A stretch of DNA of 64,000 nt. Origin: Bacteroidales bacterium. GTDB taxonomy: Bacteria > Bacteroidota > Bacteroidia > Bacteroidales > F082. The DNA lies in NCBI GenBank assembly GCA_023229135.1, contig JALNZT010000006.1, positions 1,996-65,995 of the forward strand, written 5' to 3'. A program made the position numbers and the translations under genes. Below, in pieces: positions 8,083 to 26,806 of this stretch. Under the pieces are notes generated by a model. That model was not told the origin of the DNA and made no database searches. It saw nothing but the letters and a program-made list of their open reading frames with translations. How positions within the stretch are numbered: the stretch's first letter is position 1; each line of letters starts with the position of its first letter.

Positions 8083-9381
8083 TCACGTTTTGTCGAAAAG
8101 AATATGCTTTAATGGTTGTAATACTCTATGAAACAGGCGAATATCGTTTGTGATTATCTCAGCAGTACCTTTCAGGCGTTGTTTGAAAACAAAGGTTTTA
8201 CCATAGCTGGTTTTTAAACCTGCCGGAAAATTTACTGTTGCATAGTAAACTCCCTCGTCAGGTATTTCAGAAATATGCGAGATTACGCCTTCGAGCATGC
8301 CATACTCCATATAAGGATAATTATCCAATCTGATATTTACTTTTTGACCCGGTTCAACTTTGCCGGCTCCTTCGGCTGGTAGCAGTAGCATTCCTTTTAG
8401 CGCTCCATGCGAATCGGGTAATATGGTAAAAACCGTTTCATTAGCATTCAGGTTCTGATTTTTTGCCCAATACTTAGTAAAAACACACTTGCCTGACTGA
8501 GGTGTTCTTAGCACATATTTTTGCTCCCAGATTTCCAATTGCGCCTTCAGATTATTTCCGGCTTCAACAAGTGCTGAATACAAACTTTCGTGTTGTTGTT
8601 TGTCCAGCATTTTAAACTCTGCAATAGTACTTTGCATTTGACTGATCTGTATTTGAATATTAGCCATGTTTGTTCTGATACTTTCAAAAGCCAGTTTTCT
8701 GTTAAGGTATTGGCTTTGGGCTTTTTCAAGTTCCTGCTCCGGAATTACCTGCTCATCAAATAGTTTTACATAGCGTTTATAGTCTTTTGAGGCTAATTCA
8801 AAATCACTTTTCAAGGTTTTAAACTGCTCATTAGTAAAGTCATATAATGTGCGGTAGTCAATTAATTGAAGCTGTGTTGTATTGATTTTGTTATTATAAT
8901 AGTCTATTTCCCTATAACTTTGATAGGCATGCTGTGCCGATGTAAATGCTGAATAATAAACCTGAAGCTCACCCAACTTACCTAAGCTAATAGGAATATC
9001 CCATTTATTCAAGCTATCATTTGCCTGCCATTGGCTACTTAGCGTGTTTAAATGTTTTTTAAGAACTACAATTTCTGAATAATCGGCAGGATTTTCCACC
9101 AGTCCAAGAACTTGATCTTCATGTACTTTCTGATTTTCTATAACAAAAAAAGTATCTATTTTACCACTTACCCTGGCCTTAATCTCAGTCGGTGGAAGGT
9201 TTCCGGTAATTTCAATACTTGCATGTACTACATCAGGATATTTAAAAAACCAACTCGCTGTTATAAATAGCGCAATAATGACAAAAAATACCGAGATGCC
9301 CCAGCTCACAAGACTTCCCGGGGTTTTTCCCAGTATTTCGTCAATTTCGCCTGTGCGTATGTCTGTCAGATTTGCTGGCAT
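8083..9381 (-). CDS. HlyD-family membrane fusion / secretion adaptor protein
   Basis: 432-aa ORF with one N-terminal TM segment (VSWGISVFFVIIALFITASWFF) and a long coiled-coil middle. It lies directly downstream of the C39 ABC exporter. Confidence 0.8.
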   Translation of the reverse strand: MPANLTDIRTGEIDEILGKTPGSLVSWGISVFFVIIALFITASWFFKYPDVVHASIEITGNLPPTEIKARVSGKIDTFFVIENQKVHEDQVLGLVENPADYSEIVVLKKHLNTLSSQWQANDSLNKWDIPISLGKLGELQVYYSAFTSAQHAYQSYREIDYYNNKINTTQLQLIDYRTLYDFTNEQFKTLKSDFELASKDYKRYVKLFDEQVIPEQELEKAQSQYLNRKLAFESIRTNMANIQIQISQMQSTIAEFKMLDKQQHESLYSALVEAGNNLKAQLEIWEQKYVLRTPQSGKCVFTKYWAKNQNLNANETVFTILPDSHGALKGMLLLPAEGAGKVEPGQKVNIRLDNYPYMEYGMLEGVISHISEIPDEGVYYATVNFPAGLKTSYGKTFVFKQRLKGTAEIITNDIRLFHRVLQPLKHILFDKT

Positions 9382-9456: not shown

Positions 9457-11664
9457 TTAGTTTCCAAGTTCTAGTTGATTTTTGACCAGTTTGTAATAGC
9501 TTCCCTTAAGTTTTGTCAATTCCTGGTGCGTGCCTTGTTCGATGATACTACCTTTTTCCAGCACTACAATCTGATCTGCATTTTTAACAGTGCTGAGCCT
9601 GTGGGCAACCACCACAACAGTTCGTCCTTTGAAAAATTCATTCAGGTTTTCCATGATCACTTTTTCGTTGTTGGCATCCAGCGCATTAGTCGCCTCATCA
9701 AAAAAAATAAATTGAGGGTCTTTATAGACTGCCCTGGCAATTAATATACGCTGTTTTTGTCCTTGACTAAGTCCAACTCCTTCCTGACCGATCATGGTAT
9801 TAAAGCCAAGTGGTAGTGTTTCGATATGTTCCAATATATTGGCAACCCGAGAAGCATGTAGTAGCTTACTGAAATCCAACTCGTCTTCGCTGATGCTGAT
9901 GTTGCCGGCAATGGTATCAGAAAAAATAAAGCCATCCTGCATTACAGCACCCACTTTGGAACGCCAGACACTGGCAGAAAGATTATCCACCCGAAATGGG
10001 CCTATACGTATTTCACCCGCCACAGGCTTGTAAAAGCCCAAAAGCAGTTTGAGCAAAGTGGTTTTTCCACTTCCCGATGTGCCTACAATTGCTGTTACTT
10101 TGTTTTGAGGGATTTTGAGGTCTAGCGCGTTAAGTACCAAAGGCGAACGAGGCCCGTCATACTGGTATGAAACGCCACTTAACAAGATGTCCTGTTCTGT
10201 GTCAAGTTCCCTTATTTTTACATTCATCTTATCGGCCGGTTCTTCATCTTCACGCAGGTGTATTTCACCCAATCTTTCAAGACTGATTTTGGCGTCTTGG
10301 GCAGCACGTACAAATCCTATCATTTGGTCAACCGGGGCATTCATCATACCAATGATGTACTGCACGGCCATCATCATACCGAGCGTCATCTCGCCTTTTA
10401 CAACCGCGTAAGCCGCCATAAAGGTGATGAGTATATTTTTTGACTGGTTAAAAAACGTTGCCCCGGCCTGTTGGTACTGGTTGAGTGCTAAGCCTTTTAT
10501 ATTTACGCGAAACAACCTGGCCTGTATTTTTTCCCACTCCCATCGTTTCTGTTTCTCGCAGTTGTTAAGTTTAATCTCCTGCATACCAGTAATCAATTGT
10601 ATCAGGTTACTTTGATTACCGGCCATTTGCGCGAAGCGTTTAAAATCCAATTCGCGGCGTTTTTTCATAAAGACCAGCACCCAAAGGGTATATAAAATGC
10701 TTCCGGCAAGGAAAACGAGTAAGATGCCCACATTATATACGCCAAGCACGATGGCAAATACAGCAAGGTTCACCACGGCAAACAAGATTTGCAAGGAAGA
10801 GGCTGTCAAAAAGCTTTCGATACGGCTATGATCACCAATGCGTTGCATCAGGTCGCCAATCATTTTGCTGTCAAAATAGCCCAGGGGCAGCTTCATCAGC
10901 TTGATCAGGAAATCGCTTATAAGCGAAATGTTGATGCGTGTGCTGATATGTAGCAATATCCAGCTACGAATAAACTCAACGGCTGTCTGGCCAAAAAATA
11001 AAACCAATTGCGCTATCAGCACTAAAGTGATAAAATTGAGATCACGTGTGTTGATACCCACATCTACTACTGCCTGGGTGAGGAATGGAAAGATAAGCTG
11101 TATGATACTGCCCAACAGCATGCCCAATATAAGCTGTACTAAAAGTTTGCGGTGCGGGCGCAAATAGGAGAACAAAAACCGGAAGTTTTTTTTGTTGACT
11201 ATTTCTTCTTCGTTGGTATAGAAATCCGGTGTGGGTTCCAGCAACAGACAAACGCCCATGTCCTCGTCTTCGTTTTTAGTGCTTACCCAGCCTTTTAGGA
11301 ATTCTTCCCTGCTATACGTAATAAGCCCGTGCGCAGGATCGGCTACTTTTACTTTGTCTTTTTTCTTCCCGCTAATCTCATATACCACCACAAAATGCTG
11401 CTGTTTCCAGTGGGCGATGCATGGTAGCGGGACTTCGTTAGCCAGCTTGTCGAAGGTGATTTTTACACCCATAGTTCTGAAACCGATTTTCTCGGCTGCA
11501 TCGCTGATGCCGAGCAAGGAAACCCCTTCACGGTTAATATGACAATACTCCCTTAGCACGGGCAAACTGTGTCGCTTGCCGTAGTGTCTGCTAATCGCAT
11601 CCAGGCAGGCCGGGCCACAGTCGCGGGCGTCGAGTTGGGGGGTGAAATTATATCTCACTTTCAA
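9457..11664 (-). CDS. peptidase C39 domain-containing ABC transporter (double-glycine leader cleavage/export)
   Basis: 735-aa ORF. It has the N-terminal C39 Cys motif PQLDARDCGPACL, six-TM region, Walker A GTSGSGKTTL, ABC signature LSQGQKQRI and Walker B IFFDEATNALD. Confidence 0.93.
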   Translation of the reverse strand: MKVRYNFTPQLDARDCGPACLDAISRHYGKRHSLPVLREYCHINREGVSLLGISDAAEKIGFRTMGVKITFDKLANEVPLPCIAHWKQQHFVVVYEISGKKKDKVKVADPAHGLITYSREEFLKGWVSTKNEDEDMGVCLLLEPTPDFYTNEEEIVNKKNFRFLFSYLRPHRKLLVQLILGMLLGSIIQLIFPFLTQAVVDVGINTRDLNFITLVLIAQLVLFFGQTAVEFIRSWILLHISTRINISLISDFLIKLMKLPLGYFDSKMIGDLMQRIGDHSRIESFLTASSLQILFAVVNLAVFAIVLGVYNVGILLVFLAGSILYTLWVLVFMKKRRELDFKRFAQMAGNQSNLIQLITGMQEIKLNNCEKQKRWEWEKIQARLFRVNIKGLALNQYQQAGATFFNQSKNILITFMAAYAVVKGEMTLGMMMAVQYIIGMMNAPVDQMIGFVRAAQDAKISLERLGEIHLREDEEPADKMNVKIRELDTEQDILLSGVSYQYDGPRSPLVLNALDLKIPQNKVTAIVGTSGSGKTTLLKLLLGFYKPVAGEIRIGPFRVDNLSASVWRSKVGAVMQDGFIFSDTIAGNISISEDELDFSKLLHASRVANILEHIETLPLGFNTMIGQEGVGLSQGQKQRILIARAVYKDPQFIFFDEATNALDANNEKVIMENLNEFFKGRTVVVVAHRLSTVKNADQIVVLEKGSIIEQGTHQELTKLKGSYYKLVKNQLELGN

Positions 11665-11715: not shown

Positions 11716-12996
11716 TTATTCAGTCTTATCATTATCTTGCCATGTTTTTTTAACAGGATCGTAATTACAAAGATTCATAATACCAAAGTAAAGCTCATAA
11801 CTAGATATTGGCTGACATAAATATCGGTATACACAATTTTTACAGGGTTCAACTTTTGCCCTTGTTAAATACCAGGAGCTATCTTCTATCGTATGAGCGT
11901 TGCGCAATATTTCAATCAGTTTGTTGCTTTTTATATTGCCAATATGAGGCATGTTCAAATTAGCATGAACATCACCATTGGGAAGAATAAATAACTTCCC
12001 AAAGCTTAAATGGTTTATAAACAATCTGGAGGCAATTTCACGATGAGTTAATGACTGATTCTCAACATCTGCCTTGTTACTTTTTATCACTTCAAATAAA
12101 GCATTTGACGTTGAGTTATCTATGAATGGGATCAATTCATAGGTAATGCCTTGTGTAATAAAAATTTGCTCCAAGTCTGAAATATCATTCACATCACGAA
12201 TAATTATCTTAAAAACTATTCTTGAGATGGAATCCTCATTCATCGAGAAAAAGTCAAATAATAACTTACGTTCGGTTTTGAAATCGACCCATAAAATAAA
12301 TTTTAAGTTCTCTGTATAAGTAAGTGTTTTATTATCTAATAATTCTATTACAGCGTCAGAGATATAAGCATTATAATGAACAAAACAATCCTTAAAAAAA
12401 TCGCACGTATCCTTTATTTTCTTTAGTGAAATCTCATTTCCATACAATTGAACTTTTCTAAGGCCCGGAAAAGCTTCACCCCTAAAAAAACGTAAAACCA
12501 AGTTACTACTTTCATACTGAGCCTCATTTAGGTTTATGATTGGAGCATTGATTTGTTTACTACCCGACGTATTAAATGCTGAATCAGTAATGTTTGTTGA
12601 GGAATCTCCGTAATATATAAACACCTCTTTTAGTGAATATCGGAGGTTCAAAGTTTGCCATGTTTTATCATTATTTATGTTATTAACATCGAAGTTCAGT
12701 TTTGGCGCAAAAGGCAGGATTAAAGGACGATAATGACTTTCAATTAAATCCCCGTGAAAATAATCTCTGCATAAAACTATGAATGCTGTGATTTCATCGT
12801 CAATCAACTCATTTTCATCCAAAAGGGTAATTCTATTAACATCATCTTTGAGTAATCTCGAAATGAATTCAACCCCTTTTATTCCTTTAAATAGAAAGGT
12901 AGAAGTTATACTATTAATCGTATTATGTAGCAAAATTTGATTATCAATGAGATCTGAATGAACATAAGGTTCAAGATAAAAAAAGGAATTAAGCAT
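11716..12996 (-). CDS. pseudo-rSAM protein (SPASM-like Cys cluster, no CxxxCxxC), partner of the radical SAM maturase
   Basis: The track ORF extends to 13086. ATG 12996 (MLNSFFYLEPYV) overlaps the rSAM stop as ATGCTTAA. The C-terminus has CKNCVYRYLC..C, and there is no radical-SAM Cys triad. This matches my memory of the GG-Bacteroidales pseudo-rSAM family. Confidence 0.7.
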   Translation of the reverse strand: MLNSFFYLEPYVHSDLIDNQILLHNTINSITSTFLFKGIKGVEFISRLLKDDVNRITLLDENELIDDEITAFIVLCRDYFHGDLIESHYRPLILPFAPKLNFDVNNINNDKTWQTLNLRYSLKEVFIYYGDSSTNITDSAFNTSGSKQINAPIINLNEAQYESSNLVLRFFRGEAFPGLRKVQLYGNEISLKKIKDTCDFFKDCFVHYNAYISDAVIELLDNKTLTYTENLKFILWVDFKTERKLLFDFFSMNEDSISRIVFKIIIRDVNDISDLEQIFITQGITYELIPFIDNSTSNALFEVIKSNKADVENQSLTHREIASRLFINHLSFGKLFILPNGDVHANLNMPHIGNIKSNKLIEILRNAHTIEDSSWYLTRAKVEPCKNCVYRYLCQPISSYELYFGIMNLCNYDPVKKTWQDNDKTE

Positions 12997-14476
12997 AGCG
13001 CGTTTTTCTCCATATTTCTGAGTAAACATCAGTAAATGCCTCAAAGAATGAGTAGTAATCCCTAAGAAGATCAATGTGATCTTCATTTTTTAGATGGGAA
13101 CATTTTACTGTTTTATCTTCCTTTATTATATTTAGAAACAAACATTCTTTGCATAGGTTGACTCGATAACAGTTATTGCATTTCCCTTTTAATTTTTCAA
13201 AGTGATTATTATACATCATAACAATCTTTTCATAATCTAAAAATACTTTTCCATTTTGAACATTACCTAATGAATACTCATGCGCAATGGCTTCGCAGGG
13301 CAGTATTTTTCCCTTTGCTGTGACAAACATTCTTTTGCTAAACGGATTGCAGGTGCCAGTAGGAAGAAAATTGCCCTTAGTATTGTAATTAAATAAGTCA
13401 TCAATTGTAGAAAAATGGTTATTCGTATAGTTTCTAAGAAACATGTTATAGCTCAAAGATTCACCTGAGGAAAGAAAACACTTTTTATGCTCTGATTTAT
13501 TAAGATCGTAATTATGACCATCGTAATTGAATTTTTTTCCAACTAATAGCGGATTTACCTCGGTGCCGGCAATTGATTTTTTGAATTCTCTCCAAATAAA
13601 TTCCTGAATAGAAATGAAATCATTTCTGTCGTGTAGTACCGCATTAAAAAGTACATTTTGTTCAAAAAATGAAGGGTAGTTCCTCTTAACCAAGTGGATG
13701 TTCTTGAATACAACCTTAAATGATTCTTTGTTATTAGGAAAAAGTCTGTAGCTATTCGCAAATGAGTCTCCGTCAAGACTAATAGTAAGCGCAAAGTTGT
13801 TTTTTGCAATGAATTCAATGTGTTGGTTTAACAAAACACCATTAGTTGTCATGTTAAACCTAAAGTTGAGGGGAGTGTTTTTGCTCAATTCTTCAATATA
13901 GGAAACTAATTCCTCAATGAAAGGAAAGTTCAATAACGGTTCGCCACCAAAAAATCCGATGAATATTTCTTTTTCAAGATTACTGTTAACTTTACTAAGC
14001 CACTTTGGTATTAAGTATTCTATTACTGCTTTAGCATTAGCAATACTTAAATCAAGATTATTCCGTGAATCATGAGTGTGATAATTATCTCCATAAAAGC
14101 AGTACTTACACTGGAGATTGCATCTTTCAGTAATTTCAAACACTAGAGCGCGTAAGTTTGATAACTCATAGTTAATATCGGAAGGCTTTAGTCGCCCTCC
14201 AATAATTTGTTCGTTGCTAATAGTATTAAAAAATCCGTTTTCTTTTAGGAACTCAAACTTACGTTTATAGTATATATCTGCTTTCTCCTTTGTCTTAAAA
14301 AGTAAGCTATCAGATTCGTCTTGATTTTCCTCAGTAATGGACCTATTGTTTGTTGCGTTGAAATCTTTTAGTTTTATATACCTAACTACCATTGGATTCA
14401 TATAAATAATATGCTTCTTATAAAAGCTAAATAAGTATTGATTATGTTTGGTAGTGAATAAATTAAAATCAGGCAT
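12989..14476 (-). CDS. radical SAM/SPASM domain peptide maturase
   Basis: 495-aa ORF with the radical SAM triad ITERCNLQCKYCFYG. SPASM motifs are GTCNPFSKRMFVTAKGKILPCEA and CNNCYRVNLCKEC. Confidence 0.9.
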   Translation of the reverse strand: MPDFNLFTTKHNQYLFSFYKKHIIYMNPMVVRYIKLKDFNATNNRSITEENQDESDSLLFKTKEKADIYYKRKFEFLKENGFFNTISNEQIIGGRLKPSDINYELSNLRALVFEITERCNLQCKYCFYGDNYHTHDSRNNLDLSIANAKAVIEYLIPKWLSKVNSNLEKEIFIGFFGGEPLLNFPFIEELVSYIEELSKNTPLNFRFNMTTNGVLLNQHIEFIAKNNFALTISLDGDSFANSYRLFPNNKESFKVVFKNIHLVKRNYPSFFEQNVLFNAVLHDRNDFISIQEFIWREFKKSIAGTEVNPLLVGKKFNYDGHNYDLNKSEHKKCFLSSGESLSYNMFLRNYTNNHFSTIDDLFNYNTKGNFLPTGTCNPFSKRMFVTAKGKILPCEAIAHEYSLGNVQNGKVFLDYEKIVMMYNNHFEKLKGKCNNCYRVNLCKECLFLNIIKEDKTVKCSHLKNEDHIDLLRDYYSFFEAFTDVYSEIWRKTRYA

Positions 14477-14492
14477 AAATTATCTATTATCG

Positions 14493-15752
14493 TTAATAAT
14501 GATTGTTAATAAACTCCCTAATGTAATCATTTAAATCTGATCGTTTTATCTTTAATACTTCCTCGATACAGTTGTAGAAATCTTCTTCATTGTCAGCTTC
14601 ACACAGATAAAGTTCTTTTACTTTTTCGTAGCCGCCCTGGCGGTATGCAATGTCAACAATTGCTGCATGAATGGTGTAAATAAAAGGCGTTTGCATTTCA
14701 TCATCTTTGTAATGCTTTAAACTTTCAATGTATTTACCATCCAAAGGATAGCCAAACGTTAAATAGCCATCATCATTATAATAATAGCAAACAAGACTCC
14801 CGGAAAGATCAATCCAGGGGTTGGTATTTAGATAATGTTTGAGTCTGTAAATATGGAATAGGTAGTTTTTTGTTAATACCCCACCAAAGTAGGTAGCGAT
14901 CCCTTCCTCAAAATAAGTGGTTTTTTCTTTTTGGAAAAAGTTAAGTAACAGATGTATTATTTCATGAAGGTCATCTTCACCAGTTCCACCAGCTATAATA
15001 ATATTATTAGCTGATAGTGCCATAGCTTCTCTATTACTCAATCCGGAAATAAAATCTGTATCATAGTGTTGCACACCAAACAATATTGCAGCATCAGTTA
15101 GATTATCAGCTAAAACGTATGTAATCGAATCATTGAATTCAATTCCGAATCCATCTTTGAAAGTTTGTATTTTGGATTGCATAGCGATAGCCTTTTCAGT
15201 ATTAAACACATAGTCGCGATCATAATAGAATCTGATTAAACCAATTCTTTTTGTTTCTAACATATTCTTATGATGTGAGAAAGCATTGGTAAGCTTAAAC
15301 TCTCCATTGGCTTGTTTTTTTATTGGGACAGTGATCATGTATGAAGGGATTCGCTTCCACATTTCTTCAGGATAGGCCAAAAACATGGCTCTTAACTCAA
15401 ACAAACTTTCCTCCCGTTTGATAATGCCCAATAAATATTCCTTTTCCATTGGGTAAAAAACGTTTCCACTAGCCCTTTTAAAAGAATAAAATAAATCCGG
15501 GAATTTGTATTGATCAATTTCGTTTTGATCCCAATATTTATGTAATTCCTCAGGAAACTCGTTTAATATGTAGCTTTTTTTTGCACTGTGATAATTAAGC
15601 TCGTCAAGGTAGCTTTCCCATAAATCATAAATTTCTGTAAATCCGGTGAATGTTGTGTCAACGAATGGACTAATTATTGTTTCCGGTCGTGTTTGTGTTT
15701 GGCTGCTAAGAGAAATCAATAAACCGACAAATAGTAAGAATATTCTTTTCAT
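14493..15752 (-). CDS. secreted HExxH (gluzincin-like) putative zinc metallopeptidase, paralogue 1
   Basis: 419-aa ORF with a signal-like N-terminus MKRIFLLFVGLLISLSSQ and the motif LHEIIHLLL...YFEEGIATYFGG (HExxH plus a downstream Glu). Confidence 0.6.
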   Translation of the reverse strand: MKRIFLLFVGLLISLSSQTQTRPETIISPFVDTTFTGFTEIYDLWESYLDELNYHSAKKSYILNEFPEELHKYWDQNEIDQYKFPDLFYSFKRASGNVFYPMEKEYLLGIIKREESLFELRAMFLAYPEEMWKRIPSYMITVPIKKQANGEFKLTNAFSHHKNMLETKRIGLIRFYYDRDYVFNTEKAIAMQSKIQTFKDGFGIEFNDSITYVLADNLTDAAILFGVQHYDTDFISGLSNREAMALSANNIIIAGGTGEDDLHEIIHLLLNFFQKEKTTYFEEGIATYFGGVLTKNYLFHIYRLKHYLNTNPWIDLSGSLVCYYYNDDGYLTFGYPLDGKYIESLKHYKDDEMQTPFIYTIHAAIVDIAYRQGGYEKVKELYLCEADNEEDFYNCIEEVLKIKRSDLNDYIREFINNHY

Positions 15753-15785
15753 ATTTATAATTCATTAAGAATAACACCAAATAGA

Positions 15786-15820
15786 AGTTAAAATCCTGTC
15801 TAAATAGCAGGATTTTAACT
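15786..15820 (-). terminator. hairpin immediately after a precursor gene
   Basis: agttaaaatcctg (15786-15798) pairs with caggattttaact (15808-15820). On the minus strand it is followed by ttctatttggtgttattc. Confidence 0.55.
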
Positions 15821-15832
15821 CCTAATCAATAG

Positions 15833-16030
15833 TTAATATTCAAGATTATTCTTTGGGCCAGTTATTCCTGCACTTTGCCGGTTTGACTGTGTTTGGTCAT
15901 GAATTGAGCCCGGATCACCGCAATCGCAACTGCAACTGCAAGCTGGTGTAGAACCTCCACCACCCTGATCTCCACCTTTAATGTGGTTTAATGAATCTTG
16001 GGTCATTTTGATTAATTTTAGATTTTTCAT
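15833..16030 (-). CDS. RiPP precursor peptide with a double-glycine leader and CxCxCxC core
   Basis: MKNLKLIKMTQDSLNHIKGG | DQGGGGSTPACSCSCDCGDPGSIHDQTQSNRQSAGITGPKNNLEY. It lies next to rSAM, C39-ABC and HlyD genes. Confidence 0.85.
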   Translation of the reverse strand: MKNLKLIKMTQDSLNHIKGGDQGGGGSTPACSCSCDCGDPGSIHDQTQSNRQSAGITGPKNNLEY

Positions 16031-16111
16031 ACTTTGAATTGTTAAATTGTTAATAATCGTGATAAACTATAAATAAATTGTAAAGCCGAACATAAAAAGT
16101 CAGGCATAAGC

Positions 16112-17371
16112 TTAATAATGATTGTTAATAAACTCCCTTATGTAATCATTTAAATCTGATCGTTTTATCTCTAATACTTCTTCAATGCAATTATAGAACT
16201 CCTCTTCATTGTCAGCTTTACAAAGATAAAGTTCTTTTACTTTTTCGTAGCTGCCCTGGCGGTAAGCAATATCTACAATTGCTGCATGTATCACGTAAAT
16301 AAAGTTAGACTTCATTTCTTTGTCACTAAAGTATTGTTTTATAAATGAATCGCTGGCAGGTGGATTCCCAAAATGGATATTGTTGTTGTCATCTTTATAA
16401 TATGCAGACAGACTGCCTGAAAGATCAATCCAGGGATTTTCCGATAAATAATTCTTTAATCTGCTGATGTGAAAGGGGTATTCATGCGTTAAAGAACCGC
16501 CAAAATATGTAGCAATTCCTTCCTCAAACCAATGATAAGAGCTTCTTTCTCCTAGTTTGCTAAGTAATAAATGAATAATCTCATGGAAATGATCCTCCCC
16601 GATTCCGCCGCTTATAACCATATTATTAGTTTTCAGGGCTCTGGCTTCATACATATTCAAGCCTGTCAAAAAATCCATATCAAAGTGTTGCACACCAAAC
16701 AATTTTGCAGCATCAGTCATATTGTCTGATAAAATATATGTAATTGAATCATTAAACACAATTCTAAATCCCTCTATAAAGGCTTGTATTTTTGATTGCA
16801 TTGCAAGTGCTTTTTCTTTATTGAACTTGTAGTCGCGATCATAATAGTACCTGACTAAACCAAGTCTTTTTGTCTGTAGCTTAGATCTGTAAGATGTGAA
16901 AGCATTGGTAAGCTTAAAACCCCCATCAGTTTGTCTTTTCACTGGGACAGTGATAATGTATGAAGGGATTCTCCTCCACATTTCTTCAGGATAGGTCAAA
17001 AACATGGTTCTTAATTCAAATAAATTCTCCTCCCTTTTAACAATGCCCAATAAATATTCCTTTTCCATTGGATAGAAAACGTTTCCGTAACTTCTTTTAA
17101 AAGAATAATACAAATCTGGAAAATCATATAACTCTAACTCCTTTTGATCCCAATATTTGAGCAGCTGGTCTGGAAACTGATTTAATATATAACTGTTTTT
17201 TGCGCTGACTTTGTTTAAATCATTCAGGTAGCTTTCCCATAAATCATAAATTTCTGTAAATCCGGTGAATGTTGTGTCAACGAATGGGCTAACAATGGTT
17301 TGTGGTCGTGTTTGTGTTAAGCTACAAAGAGAAATCAATAAACCGACAAATAGTAAGTATATTCTTTTCAT
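16112..17371 (-). CDS. secreted HExxH (gluzincin-like) putative zinc metallopeptidase, paralogue 2
   Basis: 419-aa ORF colinear with 14493-15752. It has the motif FHEIIHLLL...WFEEGIATYFGG, and the last roughly 50 aa are nearly identical to paralogue 1. Confidence 0.6.
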   Translation of the reverse strand: MKRIYLLFVGLLISLCSLTQTRPQTIVSPFVDTTFTGFTEIYDLWESYLNDLNKVSAKNSYILNQFPDQLLKYWDQKELELYDFPDLYYSFKRSYGNVFYPMEKEYLLGIVKREENLFELRTMFLTYPEEMWRRIPSYIITVPVKRQTDGGFKLTNAFTSYRSKLQTKRLGLVRYYYDRDYKFNKEKALAMQSKIQAFIEGFRIVFNDSITYILSDNMTDAAKLFGVQHFDMDFLTGLNMYEARALKTNNMVISGGIGEDHFHEIIHLLLSKLGERSSYHWFEEGIATYFGGSLTHEYPFHISRLKNYLSENPWIDLSGSLSAYYKDDNNNIHFGNPPASDSFIKQYFSDKEMKSNFIYVIHAAIVDIAYRQGSYEKVKELYLCKADNEEEFYNCIEEVLEIKRSDLNDYIREFINNHY

Positions 17372-17402
17372 ATTTATAATTGATTAATAGTAATACCAAA
17401 TA

Positions 17403-17441
17403 GGAGTTAAAATCCTATATAAAGAGTAGGATTTTAACTCC
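17403..17441 (-). terminator. hairpin immediately after a precursor gene
   Basis: ggagttaaaatccta (17403-17417) pairs with taggattttaactcc (17427-17441). It is followed on the minus strand by a T-rich stretch. Confidence 0.55.
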
Positions 17442-17451
17442 TTTTCAATAG

Positions 17452-17649
17452 TTAATACGCAAAATTATTCCTAGAGCCAGTTATTCCTGCACTTTGCCGG
17501 TTTGAATATGTTTGCTGATATGTAGTGTCGCCAGAACCACAATCACAACTGCAACTGCAAACTGGTGTCGAACCTCCACCTCCCTGTTCTCCACCTTTAA
17601 TATGACCTAATGAATTTTGGGTCATTTTGATTAATTTTAGATTTTTCAT
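17452..17649 (-). CDS. RiPP precursor peptide with a double-glycine leader and CxCxCxC core
   Basis: MKNLKLIKMTQNSLGHIKGG | EQGGGGSTPVCSCSCDCGSGDTTYQQTYSNRQSAGITGSRNNFAY. Confidence 0.85.
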   Translation of the reverse strand: MKNLKLIKMTQNSLGHIKGGEQGGGGSTPVCSCSCDCGSGDTTYQQTYSNRQSAGITGSRNNFAY

Positions 17650-17735
17650 ACTTTGAATTGTTAGACTGTAAATAATTGTGAGTAGTTAAAAGTGAATTGT
17701 GAAGCCGTCCTTAAAAGAAAGACGGCACAATTCAA

Positions 17736-18270
17736 TCGAACTTATTCTTCCCCAACCAGAAAATATATTTTGTCGTGCAACAAGGCACAAATTGTTTATC
17801 AAATAAAAGTGCGTGGGATAATTCATGACAACAGTCTGCATTAAAGCTATCTAGCCGGGCTATACCACCATACCTTACTTTTGCGGGGGGGGGGTAGGAT
17901 AGCAGAGCAAGCTAATCAGCTGCGTACGCTTTAAAGCACACGGCTTGAGGATTGCGTTTAGAAAAGACCTAAAAAAACGGATAGTTTTCATAAGCTGGTT
18001 TTGAGGCTTCAAGTATAAGTACAATAAACATAAAGCGCAACTTTTTTTTGCGATTTTGCAATAAAAAAAACAAATATTTTTTATGTTACTGAAATTCAAT
18101 TGAATAAAACTGTTTTTTAAGCTTGATAAATTCTAAAAGGTGGCTGAGAGAGCTTATATTAACTAAATGCGCTGGAAAAAATGGGAGCAAAACTTATGCT
18201 TTACAACTGAACATCAATGGCAAAAGAGACGGATTTAGGGGGGCACGGATTGCAAATCCGCGCCAGCGGG
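17736..18270 (-). repeat. promoter/leader module copy B (heads the complete rSAM operon)
   Basis: It aligns with copies A, D and E. It has a G10 run at 17885-17894, and its upstream end abuts a truncated gene at 18270/18271. Confidence 0.9.
18010..18040 (-). promoter_or_regulatory. Bacteroidota-type promoter in module B (TTG-20 nt-TATACTTG)
   Basis: Same sequence context as module A, about 355 nt upstream of the precursor ATG at 17649. Confidence 0.45.
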
Positions 18271-18841
18271 GAGAAATCTTATTTCCATACAATTGAACTT
18301 TTCTAAGACCTGGTAAAGCTTCATCTCTAAAAAAACGCAAAACCAAGTCACTATTTTTATACTGAGCCTCATTTAGGTTTGTGATTGGAGCATTGATTTG
18401 TTTATTACCCGACGTATTAAATGCTGAATCAGTTATGTTTGTTAAGGAATCTCCATGATATATAAACAACTCATGAAATGTATTTCTAAGGTTCATTGTT
18501 CGCCAGGTTCTTTCATCATTGAGATGTTCAAAATCAAAATTGAGTTTAGGGGCAAAAGGCATGATCACCGGCCGATAATCGCTTTCGATTATATCACCAT
18601 AATAATATTCCCTACATATTTCTATGAATTCCCTGATCTCACTATTAACCAATTCAAATTCACTTAATAGAGCAATTCTGTTAACATCATCATCGAGTAA
18701 TCTTTTTGCAAAACCAACGGATTCTTTATTTCTAAATAGGTAAAGAGAAGTTTTGTGACTTAAGGTATTATATAATAGAATATGGTTATCAATCAAGTCA
18801 GCATGAACAAATGGTTCGATATAGAAGTAGTTGTTAGGCAT
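18271..18841 (-). pseudogene. 3'-truncated pseudo-rSAM gene (only the first ~190 codons remain)
   Basis: From MPNNYFYIEPFVHADL.. to ..LRKVQLYGNKIS it is colinear with 11716-12996. It then reads into leader module B (PRWRGFAIRAP..). Its start overlaps the rSAM stop as ATGCCTAA. Confidence 0.85.
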
Positions 18842-20318
18842 AACGTGTTTTTCTCCAAATTTCTGAATACAATTCTGGCAAAGCCTCAAAAAAAGAATAA
18901 TAGTCGTTTAAAAGTCCCTTGTGACTTTCGTTATTAAGGAAAGAACATTTCAATGATTGCTCATCATTTAGCATGTTTAGAAACAAACATTCTTTACATA
19001 AATTGACTCGATAACAACTATTACATCTACCTTTCAGTTTCTCAAAATAGCCATTGTACATTTTGACTATCACTTTTGGTTCCAAATTTACAGTTCCACC
19101 TTGAACGTTTCCAAGGGCATATTGATGAGAAATAGCTTCGCATGGAAGTATTTTGCCTTTTGCTGTTACAAACATTCTTTTGCTAAAAGGGTTGCATGTT
19201 CCGGTTGGAAGGGAGTTCGAAATGGCATTGAAATTATACAAATCGTCTATCGCTGCAAAATGATTATTTGAATAGTTACGCAAAAACATATTATAGCTTA
19301 ATGACTCGCCCGAAGACAGAAAACATCTTTTGTGCCCAGATTTCCTAAAATCATAACTATGTCCATCATAATTGAAATTGTTTCCTGTCAACAAAGGGTT
19401 AACTTCAGATCCTTGAATAGATTTGTTAAACTCTCTCCATGCAAATTGCTGTGTTGATATATAATCATTCCTATCATGCAGAACTGCATTAAATAGCACA
19501 TTACGTTCAAAATAATCAGGATGCTTTTCCTTTACCAAACGTAAGTTCTTAAAAACTATGTCAAAAGATTCTTTTCCATTCGGAAAAAGCCTGTAACTAT
19601 TTGCAAAAGCCTCACCATCCAGGCTAATAGTGAGAGCGAAGTTGTTGTTTGAAATGAAATCGATGTATTTGTTTAGCAAAACACCGTTTGTTGTCATATT
19701 AAATCTAAACGTTAAACCGGTATTTTTGCTTACTTGGTTAATATACAAAACAAACGCTTCAATAAAACTAAAGTTCAACAAAGGCTCACCGCCAAAAAAA
19801 CCTATAAAAATTTCCTTTTCAGGATTTTTATTTAACTTACTAAGCCATTTTGGAATAAGATAATCAACTATCGCTCTGGCATCTAAAATATTCAAATCAA
19901 GATTCATCCGCGAATCATGTGTGTTATAACTATCTCCATAGAAACAATATTTACATTGTAGATTACATCTTTCTGTGATTTCAAATACAATTGCCCGTAG
20001 GTTTGACAGTTCGTACTCAATATCAGATTCTTTCAGGCGACCACCAATTATTTGTTCATTATCAATGTTTTCAAAAAATCCGTGTTCCCGAAGAAATTCG
20101 TATTTCTTTTTGTAATATACCAACTTATCATTTTTGTTTTGATTTACTAAGTTGGCTGTTTCTTTTTTATCTACCAATTGATTTTCATTGTTTTGCATTT
20201 TGAGTTTTTGATCGTGTGTCAAACTACTCATTAAGGGATGAAAATTAATCGAATACTTTTTATTAAAGCTAAATAGATAGTTATTGTATTTAGTTGAAAA
20301 GGTAGTGTAATCAGGCAT
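18834..20318 (-). CDS. radical SAM/SPASM domain peptide maturase (second copy)
   Basis: 494-aa ORF with ITERCNLQCKYCFYG, GTCNPFSKRMFVTAKGKILPCEA and CNSCYRVNLCKEC. It is colinear with 12989-14476. Confidence 0.9.
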   Translation of the reverse strand: MPDYTTFSTKYNNYLFSFNKKYSINFHPLMSSLTHDQKLKMQNNENQLVDKKETANLVNQNKNDKLVYYKKKYEFLREHGFFENIDNEQIIGGRLKESDIEYELSNLRAIVFEITERCNLQCKYCFYGDSYNTHDSRMNLDLNILDARAIVDYLIPKWLSKLNKNPEKEIFIGFFGGEPLLNFSFIEAFVLYINQVSKNTGLTFRFNMTTNGVLLNKYIDFISNNNFALTISLDGEAFANSYRLFPNGKESFDIVFKNLRLVKEKHPDYFERNVLFNAVLHDRNDYISTQQFAWREFNKSIQGSEVNPLLTGNNFNYDGHSYDFRKSGHKRCFLSSGESLSYNMFLRNYSNNHFAAIDDLYNFNAISNSLPTGTCNPFSKRMFVTAKGKILPCEAISHQYALGNVQGGTVNLEPKVIVKMYNGYFEKLKGRCNSCYRVNLCKECLFLNMLNDEQSLKCSFLNNESHKGLLNDYYSFFEALPELYSEIWRKTRYA

Positions 20319-21583: not shown

Positions 21584-21643
21584 TTTTGAATTACCCTTAA
21601 TACCTTTATTAATAAATAATTAAGAAATGTTAAAACTAAAAGA

Positions 21644-21712
21644 TTAAGGCTGTATATTATAATTCAAATTCATACTGTTGATGAAAATAGTGAGCATAAG
21701 ATACAGCCTTAA
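21644..21712 (-). terminator. 12-bp stem hairpin (large loop) after the third precursor gene
   Basis: ttaaggctgtat (21644-21655) pairs with atacagccttaa (21701-21712). Confidence 0.35.
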
Positions 21713-21722
21713 ACTAAGTCAA

Positions 21723-21926
21723 TTATGTTGGATTAGCTATTGACTTCATTGTTGAGTGATTAGTTGCACTTGTGGTTGTTGACCTATTCATATTATATGT
21801 TGTATCTTCACCACTACAACTACATGTACAGCTACAAGCTGGGGTTGTACCACCTCCGCCTTCTTCACCACCTTTGATTTGACTTAATGCATTCTGAGAC
21901 AAATTGATTAATTTTAAGTTTTTCAT
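21723..21926 (-). CDS. RiPP precursor peptide with a double-glycine leader and CxCxCxC core (divergent tail)
   Basis: MKNLKLINLSQNALSQIKGG | EEGGGGTTPACSCTCSCSGEDTTYNMNRSTTTSATNHSTMKSIANPT. Confidence 0.8.
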   Translation of the reverse strand: MKNLKLINLSQNALSQIKGGEEGGGGTTPACSCTCSCSGEDTTYNMNRSTTTSATNHSTMKSIANPT

Positions 21927-22007
21927 CGTTTGAAAAGTTTAATTGGAAATAATAATAACTAGAAAATGAGGGTACGCCGTCAATTAATTAATGACGGCAA
22001 TCATCGA

Positions 22008-22090
22008 TCGAACTTATTCTTCCCCAGCCAAAAGATATATTTTGTTGTGCAACACCGCACAAACTGTTTGCGAAATAAAAGGGTGTGAGC
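22008..22090 (-). repeat. partial promoter/leader module copy C (only the precursor-proximal ~80 nt conserved)
   Basis: tcgaacttattcttccccagccaaaagatatattttgttgtgcaaca..aaataaaag matches the low-coordinate end of copies A, B, D and E. The sequence from 22090 to about 22345 is unique and contains a G6 run at 22159-22164. Confidence 0.75.
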
Positions 22091-22440
22091 CTGATCGTGC
22101 ATGCAAGCAACAAGCTGCCGGATGATGCCTGTAAGACTCTTCCACTCGGTATTTATTAGGGGGGTTAATGGCTTGTATATCATAATTATATAAAGATTTG
22201 GTCATACAAACAACCAAGCATGCAAACAATTTGTTTGGGGCAGATAAACTTGGTGGGTAGGTGCTGGCTGATCTCATGGCTTTGTTTTCGGCTTTAAAAC
22301 TAAAAACAACATTTTTAGAAAGCAAATATTTTTTTGCATGATGTTTCTTTTCTTAATGGAGCAAATTTCTTAATCCGGCTGTTTATAGGGCATTGCAATG
22401 CTATTTAAAATGGATATAAATTGAGAAGTAATGTTTTCAG

Positions 22441-22681
22441 CCATACAGGGCAGCGGCACTTCGTTAGCCAGCTTGTCGAAGGTGATTTTTACACCCATAG
22501 TTCTGAAACCGATTTTCTCGGCTGCATCGCTGATGCCGAGCAAGGAAACCCCTTCACGGTTGATATGACAATAATCCCTTAGCTTGGGCAGGCTGTGTTG
22601 CTTGCCATGATGCCTGGCAATCGCATGCAGGCAGGCAGGGCCACAGTCGCGGGCGTCGAGTTGGGGGGTGAAGGGGAACAT
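22441..22681 (-). pseudogene. 5' fragment of a C39-peptidase ABC transporter gene (~80 codons)
   Basis: MFPFTPQLDARDCGPACLHAIARHHGK..KITFDKLANEVPLPC matches the N-terminus of 9457-11664. The DNA is near-identical by eye to 11425-11664, and the similarity stops abruptly near 22441. Confidence 0.85.
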
Positions 22682-22819: not shown

Positions 22820-23770
22820 TCATTGATTAAGTTCTTTTTCATATAATAAATTTGCAATGTATTCATCAATTTCAGGATAACAATGTTCATATATCTCATC
22901 ATATTGCCCACATGGATTAAAATCTATAAACCAAAGTAATCCTGATTTGTCAACCAGTAGATCAATTACCGCAAAATTCGTCTGTAATAATTTGCAAAGG
23001 TTAAAAATGGACTGTTGTACTTCCTCACTTAATTTAGTTCTTTCATAGAATTCGCCGCTATTGGATTGATGACGGGAATCAACATGCCCCCTTATTTTAT
23101 GACTGTATTTTACGGCGAAAATTTTACGCTCCACGCACAGTAGTCTGATTTCTTGATCAAAATCAACTGCCTCTTGAAAAAAAGAATTGCCAAAATAATT
23201 CTTCAATTTGGAAACTTCGTATTCTTCAATAAATGTATGATACAAACTATTCTCTGAATCCATGAACAGAACATCACTAAATGGTTTACAGACAAACTTA
23301 TTGATTCCTGTTTCTATCAAGACTGATTTTTTATATGTGACATACGATTTAGGAATGCGTAAGGCTACAGATTTTGCTGCTAATAAAACTTCTAATTTAC
23401 CAATATTATGTATATTAGGATTACCTATGCAATAATGCCTTTTCAAAATAACTTTGGAAAGAAATACTTCCAAAGCTTTTTTTTCCTCAGCAATGAAATC
23501 TATAAAGCTTAGGTTTTTATCATCATTTATAAAAAGATACGAACCAAAGTTGCCACGTCTAAACCAAAAAACATCCTTTGAATCAATTTTTCTTTCAACT
23601 CCATCATAATAAATGTTTATGCCGGTCTGATTCAACATATCTAAGTTAAAGCTAAATCCCAAATAGTTTTCATCAAGATTTACTCTTAACACGCTAGTAT
23701 TGCATTTACGCAGGACATCAATTACTCTACTTGTTGGCTCATCATTAGCCTCAGTTAAAATAAATATCAT
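22820..23770 (-). CDS. ATP-grasp peptide maturase-like protein (MvdC/MvdD-type architecture)
   Basis: 316-aa ORF. The N-terminus MIFILTEANDEPTSRVIDVL resembles microviridin-type ATP-grasp ligases. The C-terminal FAVIDLLVDKSGLLWFIDFNPCGQYD resembles the ATP-grasp Mg-binding E/D-x-N-P-x-G region. Confidence 0.6.
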   Translation of the reverse strand: MIFILTEANDEPTSRVIDVLRKCNTSVLRVNLDENYLGFSFNLDMLNQTGINIYYDGVERKIDSKDVFWFRRGNFGSYLFINDDKNLSFIDFIAEEKKALEVFLSKVILKRHYCIGNPNIHNIGKLEVLLAAKSVALRIPKSYVTYKKSVLIETGINKFVCKPFSDVLFMDSENSLYHTFIEEYEVSKLKNYFGNSFFQEAVDFDQEIRLLCVERKIFAVKYSHKIRGHVDSRHQSNSGEFYERTKLSEEVQQSIFNLCKLLQTNFAVIDLLVDKSGLLWFIDFNPCGQYDEIYEHCYPEIDEYIANLLYEKELNQ

Positions 23771-24471
23771 CGTATATCTATAAGTTCTAGTCTGGTTGTT
23801 ATACCATTAATCTCATTTTCAATAAGAACAAAACCATAATCTTTGTTAAATAAAAATACTGAGTACCCTGTGCCCAACTTTGATTGTGAAACAGCAGTAA
23901 CTTTACGGCACGCAATTTTTATCCCTTGATAAATTATAATGGAATCACCAACAATCTTATATCTTGATATTATCTTTGTTTTTTTTGGTATGTTCCATCC
24001 TTCAAAAGCTGTTAAAGTTTGTTTCCATTTAAAATTGATATTCTTTCTTAATCTAATCTCAGGAAATGGGAGTAGTTGATGAATTTCATTTTCATTTGCT
24101 CTGGGCGGGTGTATTTCATAAGATTTCTTATTTTCAGTAGCAAGAGTCTCCTCCCATGTATAGTCTATTTTTTTATTTAGAGAATCTAAGCTTAAGAAAT
24201 ATGTGTATCTGACCAGAGTTTGATTAAACTTTGGTTCGGGCTGTACTGTCAGCAAAATGAAAAACTTACGAATTATGCCTGAAGAATCAGCATAAACTTC
24301 TTCATACAAATATTGTTTTCCAGGGTTTAAGATCCTGTTATCATCGTTTGGGTTATTTCTTGCTGAGAAGCAAAATGAATTCAGACTTAACACACATGCT
24401 AAACACAACAAGATGTTAATAAGCAAGCGGTTATGACTACCGCTTGCCTTGAAAAACCTATTCGTTAACAT
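23767..24471 (-). CDS. hypothetical secreted/membrane-anchored protein in the ATP-grasp cassette
   Basis: 234-aa ORF with the hydrophobic N-terminus LLINILLCLACVLSLNSFCFS. Its stop overlaps the ATP-grasp start (ATGA). I recognise no motif. Confidence 0.6.
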   Translation of the reverse strand: MLTNRFFKASGSHNRLLINILLCLACVLSLNSFCFSARNNPNDDNRILNPGKQYLYEEVYADSSGIIRKFFILLTVQPEPKFNQTLVRYTYFLSLDSLNKKIDYTWEETLATENKKSYEIHPPRANENEIHQLLPFPEIRLRKNINFKWKQTLTAFEGWNIPKKTKIISRYKIVGDSIIIYQGIKIACRKVTAVSQSKLGTGYSVFLFNKDYGFVLIENEINGITTRLELIDIR

Positions 24472-24473
24472 TT

Positions 24474-24683
24474 TTAGTTTGCATTGATTTTAATTACTAT
24501 GCCTAAAATTTTACGATCGGTACGTTGAATATTGTTATGCATATAGTATGTTTTCTTCCCAAAGATACCATCAACTTGTATATCCTCGTCTGTCTCAATA
24601 TAATCTGTAATTATATCGCTTTCAGAAGTGCCTCCAATAACATTATCCATATCTGTTTTGTCAATGAAAATTACTTTTTTCAT
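24474..24683 (-). CDS. candidate RiPP precursor with a GG leader and Thr/Ser/Asp/Glu/Lys-rich core
   Basis: MKKVIFIDKTDMDNVIGG | TSESDIITDYIETDEDIQVDGIFGKKTYYMHNNIQRTDRKILGIVIKINAN. It is the first gene after leader module D and lies two genes upstream of the ATP-grasp enzyme. Confidence 0.6.
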   Translation of the reverse strand: MKKVIFIDKTDMDNVIGGTSESDIITDYIETDEDIQVDGIFGKKTYYMHNNIQRTDRKILGIVIKINAN

Positions 24684-24792
24684 AAAATAATATATTAATT
24701 TAGTTGATTAAAACCTAAAATTCTCCAACGGTATAAATCTATCCGTGAATAAAGCCGTCCATCCAATGGTTTTGGTAGACGGCCCACCTCGG

Positions 24793-25358
24793 TCGAACTT
24801 ATTCTTCCCCAACCAATCCCGAAAGCTTTCGGGAATATTTCGTCGTGCAATAAGGCACAAATTGTCTATCAAATAAAAGTATGTAGTAAAGCTCATGACA
24901 ACAAGCTCCATTAAAGGCGGCTAACCGGGCTAAACCACCATAGTCTTGCTTTTGCGGGGGGGGGGGTAAAGCCATGTTGTTCATGATAACACAACAAGCT
25001 TATCAAACGTGTACACTTTATAGTACACAACTTAAAGATTGCGGTTAGAAAAGACCTAAAAAAACGGATAGTTTTCATAAGCTGGTTTTGAGGCTTCAAA
25101 TATAAGTACAATAAACATAAAGCGCAACTTTTTTTTACGATTTTGCAATAAAAAAACAAATATTTTTTATATTACTGAAAATCAACTGAATAAAACTGTT
25201 TTTTAAGCTTGATAAATTGCCAAATGCGGCTGAGAGAGCTTAGATTAACTAAATATGCTGGAAAAAATGGGAGCAAAACTTATGCTTTACAACTGATTAT
25301 CAATGGCAAAAGAGAAGGATTTAGGGGGGCACGGATTGCAAATCCGCGCCAGCGGGTG
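24793..25358 (-). repeat. promoter/leader module copy D (heads the ATP-grasp cassette)
   Basis: It aligns with copies A, B and E and has a G11 run at 24956-24966. It carries an extra small hairpin insertion cccgaaagctttcggg at 24818-24833. Confidence 0.9.
25097..25127 (-). promoter_or_regulatory. Bacteroidota-type promoter in module D (TTG-20 nt-TATATTTG, perfect TAnnTTTG)
   Basis: The minus strand reads gTTGcgctttatgtttattgtactTATATTTGaagcc. Confidence 0.5.
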
Positions 25359-26655: not shown

Positions 26656-26806
26656 GCTATTTATTGTTAAATTATTAAATTCTATAACGGGTTCATTATG
26701 ACTGATTTATGCGTAAAAAACGATTTTGACAATGAGAACCCAAAACCTTATAATATAAAAACATGTTTCGCCGCTACTTTATTCTATATAGTTGCGGCTA
26801 ACTCGA

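Follow-up and report, generated by a model that had tools for sequence, protein, structure and literature searches.

Exported gluzincin-like peptidases paired with radical SAM peptide precursors in Bacteroidales as candidate self-protection factors

The locus

The analysed stretch, below called the window, is 64,000 nucleotides of a Bacteroidales metagenome-assembled genome (MAG) with protein names of the form M0Q90_04185. It contains three precursor genes of a peptide maturation and export system. Each is followed by a gene for a predicted exported zinc peptidase, and these three paralogues, P1, P2 and P3, are the subject of this study. The remainder of the system consists of radical S-adenosylmethionine (rSAM) maturases of family TIGR04148, pseudo-rSAM proteins, an ATP-binding cassette (ABC) exporter with a C39 peptidase domain (PCAT) and an HlyD-family adaptor. 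All relevant genes are on the minus strand. In the 5' to 3' direction the order is PCAT remnant, precursor 3, hairpin, P3, rSAM no. 2, truncated pseudo-rSAM no. 2, precursor 2, hairpin, P2, precursor 1, hairpin, P1, rSAM no. 1, pseudo-rSAM no. 1, PCAT, HlyD (Table 1). The start of rSAM no. 1 is 16 nt past the P1 stop codon.

A preliminary description of this DNA had reported the three paralogous open reading frames, each placed after a CxCxCxC precursor and a hairpin. All three frames are present, and the arrangement holds in three units out of three. The precursors have the form MKNLKLI...IKGG-[DE][QE]GGGG-[ST]TP.CSC[ST]C.C... followed by a hydrophilic tail. The GG leader is of the usual form and was recognised by eye; precursor 1 had no match at E<=0.1 in Pfam or NCBIfam, including TIGR04149 and PF14406. 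The hairpins begin at the precursor stop codons and have folding energies of -24 to -27 kcal/mol, the z scores being derived from comparison with shuffled sequences. The hairpin after precursor 1 is likely to be an attenuator or an mRNA stabiliser.

Table 1. Features of the peptide clusters, with positions in the window
Feature	Positions	Strand	Remarks
Peptidase P1	14493..15752	-	419 aa; signal peptide aa 1-19, +1 Gln20, HEIIH 263-267, Glu283
Peptidase P2	16112..17371	-	419 aa; 72% identical to P1
Peptidase P3	20333..21583	-	416 aa; 41% identical to P1
Precursor 1	15833..16030	-	65 aa; leader ...HIKGG, then DQGGGG-STPACSCSCDCG and hydrophilic tail
Precursor 2	17452..17649	-	65 aa
Precursor 3	21723..21926	-	67 aa
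Hairpin starting at the precursor 1 stop codon	15772..15835	-	-27.3 kcal/mol, z -6.3
Hairpin after precursor 2	17394..17450	-	-24.4 kcal/mol, z -5.9
Hairpin after precursor 3	21634..21720	-	-27.1 kcal/mol, z -3.2
5' recombination handle: upstream region and leader-coding part of precursor 3	21829..22400	-	86.7% identical to L003
3' recombination handle: last ~160 nt of the P3 gene	20329..20494	-	similarity to L003
rSAM/SPASM maturase no. 1 (TIGR04148)	12989..14476	-	388.5 bits, cut-off 300
rSAM maturase no. 2	18834..20318	-	69% identical to no. 1, 97% to the L003 rSAM
Pseudo-rSAM no. 1, TIGR04150-like	11716..13086	-	TIGR04150 is the best match, full length, E 2e-52, 178.6 bits, under the cut-off of 250
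Pseudo-rSAM no. 2	18194..18889	-	cut off after ~205 residues by a ~570-nt repeat insertion
C39-peptidase ABC exporter (PCAT)	9457..11664	-	
HlyD-family periplasmic adaptor	8083..9381	-	
PCAT gene remnant	22370..22681	-	N-terminal part of the C39 domain only
Conserved promoter-like and 5' untranslated region element upstream of precursor 2	17650..17830	-	

Identity, fold and export of the peptidases

Sequence searches of Pfam, NCBIfam and PDB with the proteins and with the family profile did not assign P1-P3 to any peptidase family. P1-P3 and 10 distant relatives had no Pfam match at E<=0.1, Peptidase_M1 (PF01433) included. P1-P3 had none in NCBIfam at the same threshold, including the alpha-ketoglutarate (alpha-KG) dependent HExxH family of the TIGR04267 type. 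The preliminary description had proposed a check by family models and structure prediction; the models thus gave no match, and the predicted structure is gluzincin-like. The sole PDB sequence match, a weak but repeated one between P1 residues 58-122 (window ~15387-15581) and a triplicated PsaD-like segment in 9vfj_D (photosystem I subunit II; profile E 9e-6), is probably due to chance.

The AlphaFold2 model, built from an alignment of 19 sequences, has a predicted local distance difference test score (pLDDT) of 87 and a predicted template modelling score (pTM) of 0.82. In a Foldseek search of the PDB with this model all 33 matches at E<=1e-3 were gluzincins: M1 (PepN of E. coli, Plasmodium aminopeptidase N, IRAP, ERAP), M9 (clostridial collagenases T and G) and M30 (lugdulysin). 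Most had probability 1.00 and TM-scores of only 0.27-0.37. The predicted fold is nearest to the catalytic units of M1 aminopeptidases and M9 collagenases, and the resemblance is remote.

The motif HEIIH-x14/15-EEG[IV]ATYFG occurs in all three paralogues. Residues H263, E264, H267, E283 and G284 are invariant across 26 close and three distant relatives, and E282 is variable (N, D, V, H); the third zinc ligand is predicted to be Glu283, not Glu282. In the model HExxH lies in helix 262-273 and xEG in the next helix, 279-290, which is the gluzincin arrangement. The earlier assignment of the motif to the gluzincins thus stands at the level of the prediction. Y359, constant throughout the close family, is a better transition-state candidate than H362. 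The latter was considered as catalytic and rejected: it did not vary in the initial alignment of 19 sequences but is replaced by N or M in several relatives. The presence of the Cys384/Cys395 pair in the conserved C-terminus is not correlated with linkage to peptide genes.

M1 aminopeptidases have a GxMEN motif and the spacing HExxH-x18-E. In the aligned sequences of the family, read by eye, no GxMEN exopeptidase motif was found, the nearest conserved element being GGxGE[ND], three residues before HExxH. Given the lack of a model match and of GxMEN, and the spacing of x15 instead of x18, the family is not M1.

The N-terminus of the proteins has an n-region with K/R and a hydrophobic stretch of ~12 residues, followed by Gln20, which is invariant in all 26 close relatives. 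The confidence of the model drops just past the signal sequence, at residues 19-24. The invariant Gln20 fits the Q-rule of Bacteroidetes, by which signal peptidase I (SPI) substrates have Gln at +1 (PMC5837995, PMC10653852), so the signal sequence noted in the preliminary description is well founded. There is no conserved lipobox cysteine in the family, and no Pfam match to the C-terminal domain of the type IX secretion system (Por_Secre_tail). With a Sec/SPI signal and neither of these features, the proteins are predicted to be periplasmic. Taken together, P1-P3 represent an unannotated family of what are, by sequence and model, Sec/SPI-exported zinc metallopeptidases of gluzincin type, with predicted zinc binding and proteolysis.

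Linkage to the peptide system

A word-indexed search of 5.8 billion proteins yielded 20 relatives. The full profile search of 1.84 billion representatives yielded 632 at E<=1e-3, of which 38 reached E<=1e-30, that is, ~630 family representatives counted at 50% clustering. This wider superfamily consists of exported proteins, and the distant matches align mainly over positions 1-320. Nine genome and 18 metagenome loci were recovered (designated below by L numbers); all named ones are from Bacteroidales, Lentimicrobiaceae or Bacteroidetes MAGs.

Among the non-redundant close-family genes (>=37% identical), 13 directly follow a CxCxC precursor, directly precede a TIGR04148-type rSAM gene, or do both. 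These are the three genes of the window, two in L003, those of L008, L010, L017, L020/21 and L022, and those of the decayed loci L002, L009 and L015. Ten genes stand alone: L001, two in L004, L005 (a pseudogene), L007, L011, L018, L019, L023 and L024. L007 and L011 share conserved synteny, the peptidase gene lying between PreA-like and creatininase-like genes (named by eye from the translations). Thus ~57% of the close-family genes found via the peptidase are peptide-linked. In nine loci of distant relatives (20-27% identity) no peptide genes were found nearby. The preliminary description had named occurrence mostly away from peptide genes as an observation that would speak against it; the distant loci show such occurrence, the close family does not.

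The search with precursor 1 gave only four proteins, and the survey was therefore made from the rSAM side. Among the homologues of rSAM no. 1, 16 clusters make up a close clade (>=44% identical), and the many others are at <=40%. In the sampled loci of the close clade (L032, L033, L034/35) and in L039 (38%) the peptidase lies directly upstream of the rSAM gene and matches the family profile at E 1e-82 to 1e-188. The precursors at these loci have the form GG...CxCxC...G..DTT. The same is true of the peptidase in every readable rSAM-containing locus of the close clade (both clusters of the window, L003, L008, L010, L017, L020/21, L022, L032, L033, L034), to which L039 is added: it is directly upstream of the rSAM gene, always in the same position and orientation, over rSAM identities from 38% to 97%. 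Hence the peptidase is obligatorily present in one clade of the TIGR04148 rSAM system.

Three more distant clusters, L036, L037 and L038, have a different protein in the slot between precursor and rSAM, namely a DUF5128 six-bladed beta-propeller, with a clear lipoprotein signal in two cases out of three. These proteins do not match the A3 profile and, as judged by sequence, are apparently unrelated to the zinc peptidase. The order in L037 (687-11904) is precursor, DUF5128, precursor, DUF5128, glycosyltransferase, rSAM, pseudo-rSAM, PCAT, HlyD. Since there is one DUF5128 lipoprotein gene per precursor, the one-to-one architecture exists with an apparently unrelated partner as well. Three genes upstream in L036 there is also a gene whose 509-aa product matches Peptidase_M1 (E 6e-7). 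Alignment of the family profile with this M1-like protein by hhalign, the template being a single sequence, gave a probability of 0.5%.

The known relative of these clusters is the GG-Bacteroidales system (TIGR04148, TIGR04149, TIGR04150, PCAT, HlyD; PMC4573289, PMC10352776), with GG leaders and, in Bacteroides uniformis, the same gene order as in the window. The B. uniformis cluster has five genes and none in the slot, whereas in B. fragilis the precursor and rSAM genes are separated by a lipoprotein gene (PMC4573289). Proteins encoded after Bacteroides precursors were termed 'putative signaling proteins', and no immunity homologues were recognised in the Bacteroides clusters of this system (PMC10352776). 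Thus the slot is empty or holds a lipoprotein in the published Bacteroides examples, a zinc peptidase in the clade of the window and DUF5128 in the sampled distant clusters. The preliminary description had placed the unit of precursor and metalloprotease outside the known rSAM RiPP architectures. The one-to-one unit indeed recurs in other genomes, but an exported partner in the slot is not unique to it.

Cassette exchange

Trees of the peptidases and of the rSAM proteins are in strong conflict. Between cluster B of the window and L003 the rSAM proteins are 97% identical and the peptidases 41%. The corresponding values are 93% and 41% for L003 and L010, and 76% and 41% for cluster A of the window and L008. 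At the DNA level, window positions 20494-18273, from the last 162 nt of P3 through the rSAM gene to the repeat insertion, are 96.6% identical to L003, and positions 22400-21829, comprising the upstream region and the leader-coding part of the precursor, are 86.7% identical. Between these two handles lie the core and tail of the precursor, the hairpin and the peptidase codons up to residue ~363; similarity to L003 was not detectable there. In the comparison of cluster A with L008 the breakpoints are at the equivalent two places, and thus two independent comparisons agree. The three units of the window are also most similar at the same two ends, the leader-coding region and the 3' end of the peptidase gene. 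One exchangeable cassette thus comprises the core and tail of the peptide, the hairpin and the peptidase up to residue ~363; it is exchanged by recombination at two sites, the leader-coding region on one side and the final ~160 nt of the peptidase gene on the other. Both duplicated units are kept in two separate lineages, those of the window and L003.

The C-terminal block, whose conservation had been pointed out before, is the most conserved part of the paralogues at both the protein and the DNA level. Given the breakpoint in the last ~160 nt of the gene, this conservation is explained, at least partly, by the role of the block as a recombination handle. The block may also have a shared function.

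The peptidase is inherited together with the variable part of the peptide, is exported and gluzincin-like with its catalytic motif intact, and is obligatorily present in one clade. From this we infer that every peptidase has one peptide variant as its cognate partner and acts on it outside the cytoplasm.

Stand-alone copies

In a neighbour-joining tree rooted on the distant relatives the basal members of the close family (L039, L034, L033) are cluster-linked, and the stand-alone (orphan) genes are nested at no fewer than five separate places. By this tree, stand-alone copies arose at least five times. The orphans retain all catalytic residues. The ratio of nonsynonymous to synonymous substitution rates (dN/dS) is 0.18, 0.18 and 0.07 in pairs of orphans and 0.12-0.20 in linked pairs; the values of 0.07-0.18 for orphans indicate purifying selection. 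Most orphan-bearing genomes are incomplete MAGs. None of the best 120 rSAM homologues is on the 4.62-Mb chromosome bearing the L001 orphan. A single MAG carries both the complete cluster L008 and, on a separate contig, two tandem orphans that differ in type (L004). In the decayed loci L002, L009 and L015 the peptidase is intact and the rSAM gene is destroyed or absent; in L002, where it is destroyed, the precursor has also undergone a Cys-to-Ser change.

Other features of the clusters and neighbouring genes

In most peptidase-linked precursors a G-x(2-3)-DTT motif accompanies CxCxC. It was seen in precursors 2 and 3 of the window and in L015, L017, L021, L033, L034 and L039; precursor 1 does not have it. 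The sequon of general O-glycosylation in Bacteroidetes is D-[ST]-[AILVMT]. DTT fits this sequon; equally, its residues could be acceptors of thioether cross-links.

Precursor genes with GG leaders, from two distinct peptide systems, are immediately preceded by a conserved element of ~170 nt. In the window it precedes precursor 2 (Table 1), precursor 3 (21927-22100) and the GG peptide gene 24474-24683 (24684-24860). Other copies are in L002 (8540-8790), L003 (7790-8040), L009 (130-381) and L015 (7480-7730). It contains a palindromic TTTGTGC..TTGCAC box, a -33 TTTG / -7 TAnnTTTG pair resembling the promoter consensus of Bacteroidetes type, and a conserved GCCGTC...GACGGC hairpin in the presumed 5' untranslated region. 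Precursor 1 is not preceded by this element and thus must be transcribed by read-through from the promoter of precursor 2. A scan for sigma-70 promoters and terminators performed no better than on shuffled sequences, and an Rfam scan of the window gave no match.

Short C39-domain remnants of the PCAT gene are found at cluster borders, in the window (Table 1) and in L003 (7395-7553 and 14084-14350). They look like scars of duplication or recombination. A dispersed repeat of ~570 nt occurs in the window at 17704-18270, 24775-25356 and 26775-27343, with a partial copy at 21976-22087; the copies are 65-89% identical. One of them ends pseudo-rSAM no. 2 at ~18270. Translated fragments related to this repeat flank the peptidase loci L002, L009, L015 and L032.

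A second peptide unit is situated at 22820-24683 on the minus strand. It comprises a GG-leader peptide (24474-24683), a 234-aa protein (23767-24471) and an ATP-grasp ligase (22820-23770) that is TIGR04192-like (114 bits, under the cut-off of 230). The 234-aa protein has no family match and is probably exported, so that here too a precursor is directly followed by an exported-looking protein. Its homologues adjoin the orphan peptidase in L001 (27% identical) and lie 5 kb from the peptidase in L015/L016 (68%). A few kilobases from the peptide clusters there is a gene for a 796-aa membrane protein (27486-29876, minus strand), FtsX/MacB-like by eye from its translation only. It is syntenic with L015 10986-13376, downstream of the precursor and peptidase remnant in L015/L016. 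This synteny suggests a shared genomic island.

Comparison with known systems

Both kinds of components, zinc peptidases associated with peptides that are made on ribosomes and then modified post-translationally (RiPPs) and cassettes of peptide and immunity genes, are already known. What is new is the peptidase family, its per-precursor role in an rSAM peptide system, the defined unit of exchange with its handles, and the DUF5128 parallel.

The RiPP-processing gluzincins AplP and SflL (M1) and MfuP (M61) have HExxH with a downstream Glu and are encoded together with a RiPP precursor, and MfuP is also beside a PCAT (PMC10885120). Unlike the M1 enzymes, the proteins of the window family are ~400 aa long, lack the M1 C-terminal domain, a Peptidase_M1 match and GxMEN, possess a signal peptide and have the spacing HExxH-x15-Glu instead of x18. 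Unlike all these enzymes, they are encoded one per precursor, are swapped with the variable region of the peptide and are kept as orphans.

The arrangement also resembles bacteriocin-immunity pairs behind GG-leader peptides. In both cases a partner directly follows each peptide gene, one to one and co-diverging with it; cassettes are exchanged before conserved export and maturation genes; and orphan partners exist. The nisin resistance protein NSR, which inactivates nisin by proteolysis (PMC4698656, PMC4828448), is similar in being a protease that neutralises a thioether peptide, but it is a serine peptidase (S41) and is found in non-producers.

HExxH proteins in clusters with a radical SAM enzyme are also known among the alpha-KG-dependent RiPP enzymes PflC/PosC (TIGR04267 type; PMC12636437). 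In contrast to them, P1-P3 carry export signals, do not match any NCBIfam model and are predicted to fold like gluzincins, Glu being the third ligand. Moreover, their Bacteroidales host is presumably anaerobic.

Possible function

The reading that we favour, with a probability of about 0.4, is that the exported peptidase is a periplasmic self-protection factor providing proteolytic immunity. The PCAT-HlyD machine would cleave the modified peptide at GG and export it. Cognate peptide that enters the periplasm or leaks there would be hydrolysed by the peptidase, probably within the variable tail. This hydrolysis would protect the producer, as well as non-producers that keep an orphan copy. Systems formed by a PCAT and a membrane fusion protein, such as that of ColV, export across both membranes (PMC10352776), and with export of this type only peptide that had re-entered would come into contact with an enzyme in the periplasm. 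Self-immunity was one of the suggestions of the preliminary description, the other being a post-export trimming step, for instance at the xQGGGG segment or the long C-terminal tail. The exchange of cassettes together with the variable peptide, the selected orphans and the non-homologous protein in the same slot fit the former better, and they are among the reasons for favouring self-protection over post-export maturation. The intact peptidase genes of the decayed loci, the tandem orphans of L004 and the absence of the best 120 rSAM homologues from the chromosome with the L001 orphan point the same way. Removal of xQGGGG is weakened: the leader and this segment are near-identical in the window, while the peptidases differ by up to 59%, and hence the specificity must concern the variable tail.

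In a broader and somewhat more tentative version, polymorphic cassettes of a peptide variant and a periplasmic zinc peptidase would shuffle before a constant backbone, the peptidase serving as variant-specific proteolytic immunity and DUF5128 having the same role in the sister clusters.

Several considerations weigh against self-protection. No activity, antimicrobial or other, is known for any peptide of a TIGR04148 system. Classical immunity proteins are small membrane proteins, and a soluble zinc peptidase of 417 aa would be an unusual one. The orphans could serve clusters located elsewhere in MAGs that are incomplete, or they could have returned to a general role as peptidases, as in the wider superfamily. 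That the gene belongs to the biosynthetic operon and ends 14-16 nt ahead of rSAM is just as expected for a maturation enzyme. Finally, zinc binding, proteolysis and the periplasmic location are predicted properties, the last from sequence alone, and the superposition of HExxH and E283 on the ligands of the templates is deduced from sequence and secondary structure.

Post-export maturation is possible, if rather doubtful. After the C39 cut at GG the peptidase would trim the [DE][QE]GGGG hexapeptide, the long variable C-terminal tail or both of them. It is well documented that a PCAT can be followed by a second processing step, which typically removes a hexapeptide, and gluzincins do process RiPPs, as AplP (M1) and, together with a PCAT, MfuP (M61) (PMC10885120). 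Exactly six residues, [DE][QE]GGGG, follow GG in all three precursors of the window; the predicted fold is nearest to M1 aminopeptidases; and the gene is within the operon, directly before the rSAM gene. However, the poly-Gly linker is absent from the peptidase-linked precursors of L017 (DSGNPVA) and L033 (YVPKT), and it is near-identical across the window precursors, although their peptidases are as low as 41% identical, and no GxMEN exopeptidase motif was found in the alignments by eye. Cutting in the variable tail would likewise account for the one-to-one pairing and the co-swapping. But a dedicated maturation enzyme should decay after biosynthesis has been lost, whereas orphans with neither precursor nor rSAM, of at least five origins, are under purifying selection. 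Besides, an apparently unrelated beta-propeller fills the same slot in the sister clusters, and the PCAT-HlyD exporter may bypass the periplasm, the predicted site of the enzyme.

It is improbable that the peptidase is the target or binding partner of the peptide. In that case the peptide would be a ligand or an inhibitor, and the linked copy a resistant target, a decoy or the receptor of a signalling peptide. Resistant-target genes do occur in biosynthetic clusters, and resistant orthologues of the receptors lie beside the Bacteroides BSAP toxin genes. The members of the wider superfamily at the nine distant loci without peptide genes could be the ordinary sensitive targets, the pairing is one-to-one and variant-specific, the beta-propeller that occupies the slot elsewhere points to binding more than to catalysis, and such a role would agree with the label 'putative signaling proteins' (PMC10352776). 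However, the linked state is basal and the orphans derived, and for a resistant version of a housekeeping protein the reverse is expected. A decoy would have no need of the catalytic residues, all of which are strictly retained, and nothing indicates inhibition of metallopeptidases by the peptide.

Finally, it is very unlikely that a general periplasmic peptidase without any peptide role was copied and recombined with the precursor through adjacency alone: tandem duplication does carry neighbour genes along, the examined distant members of the superfamily are not peptide-linked and the orphans, by their dN/dS, function alone, but in the readable close-clade rSAM loci and L039 the peptidase is constant in presence, position and orientation over rSAM identities of 38%-97%, both duplicated units are retained in the window and L003 lineages, the breakpoints keep the peptide variable region and the peptidase body together, and in the sister clusters a different exported protein occupies the slot, at one copy per precursor in L037.

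Biological implications

The TIGR04148/TIGR04150 peptide system is common in Bacteroidales, gut species included, and neither a product nor an activity nor an immunity factor is known for it. The gene in the slot after each precursor, encoding a zinc peptidase or DUF5128, is a candidate cognate extracytoplasmic partner of the peptide. If the peptidase acts in maturation, it would represent a new class of variant-specific RiPP proteases, possibly useful as tools. If it provides self-protection, as we favour, the zinc peptidase may be the first self-protection factor described for such peptides in Bacteroidota, and the cassettes would contain the first immunity determinants for Bacteroidales RiPPs. 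The peptides would then be weapons in the competition between close relatives, and there would be a rule for pairing peptides with resistance genes in metagenomes.

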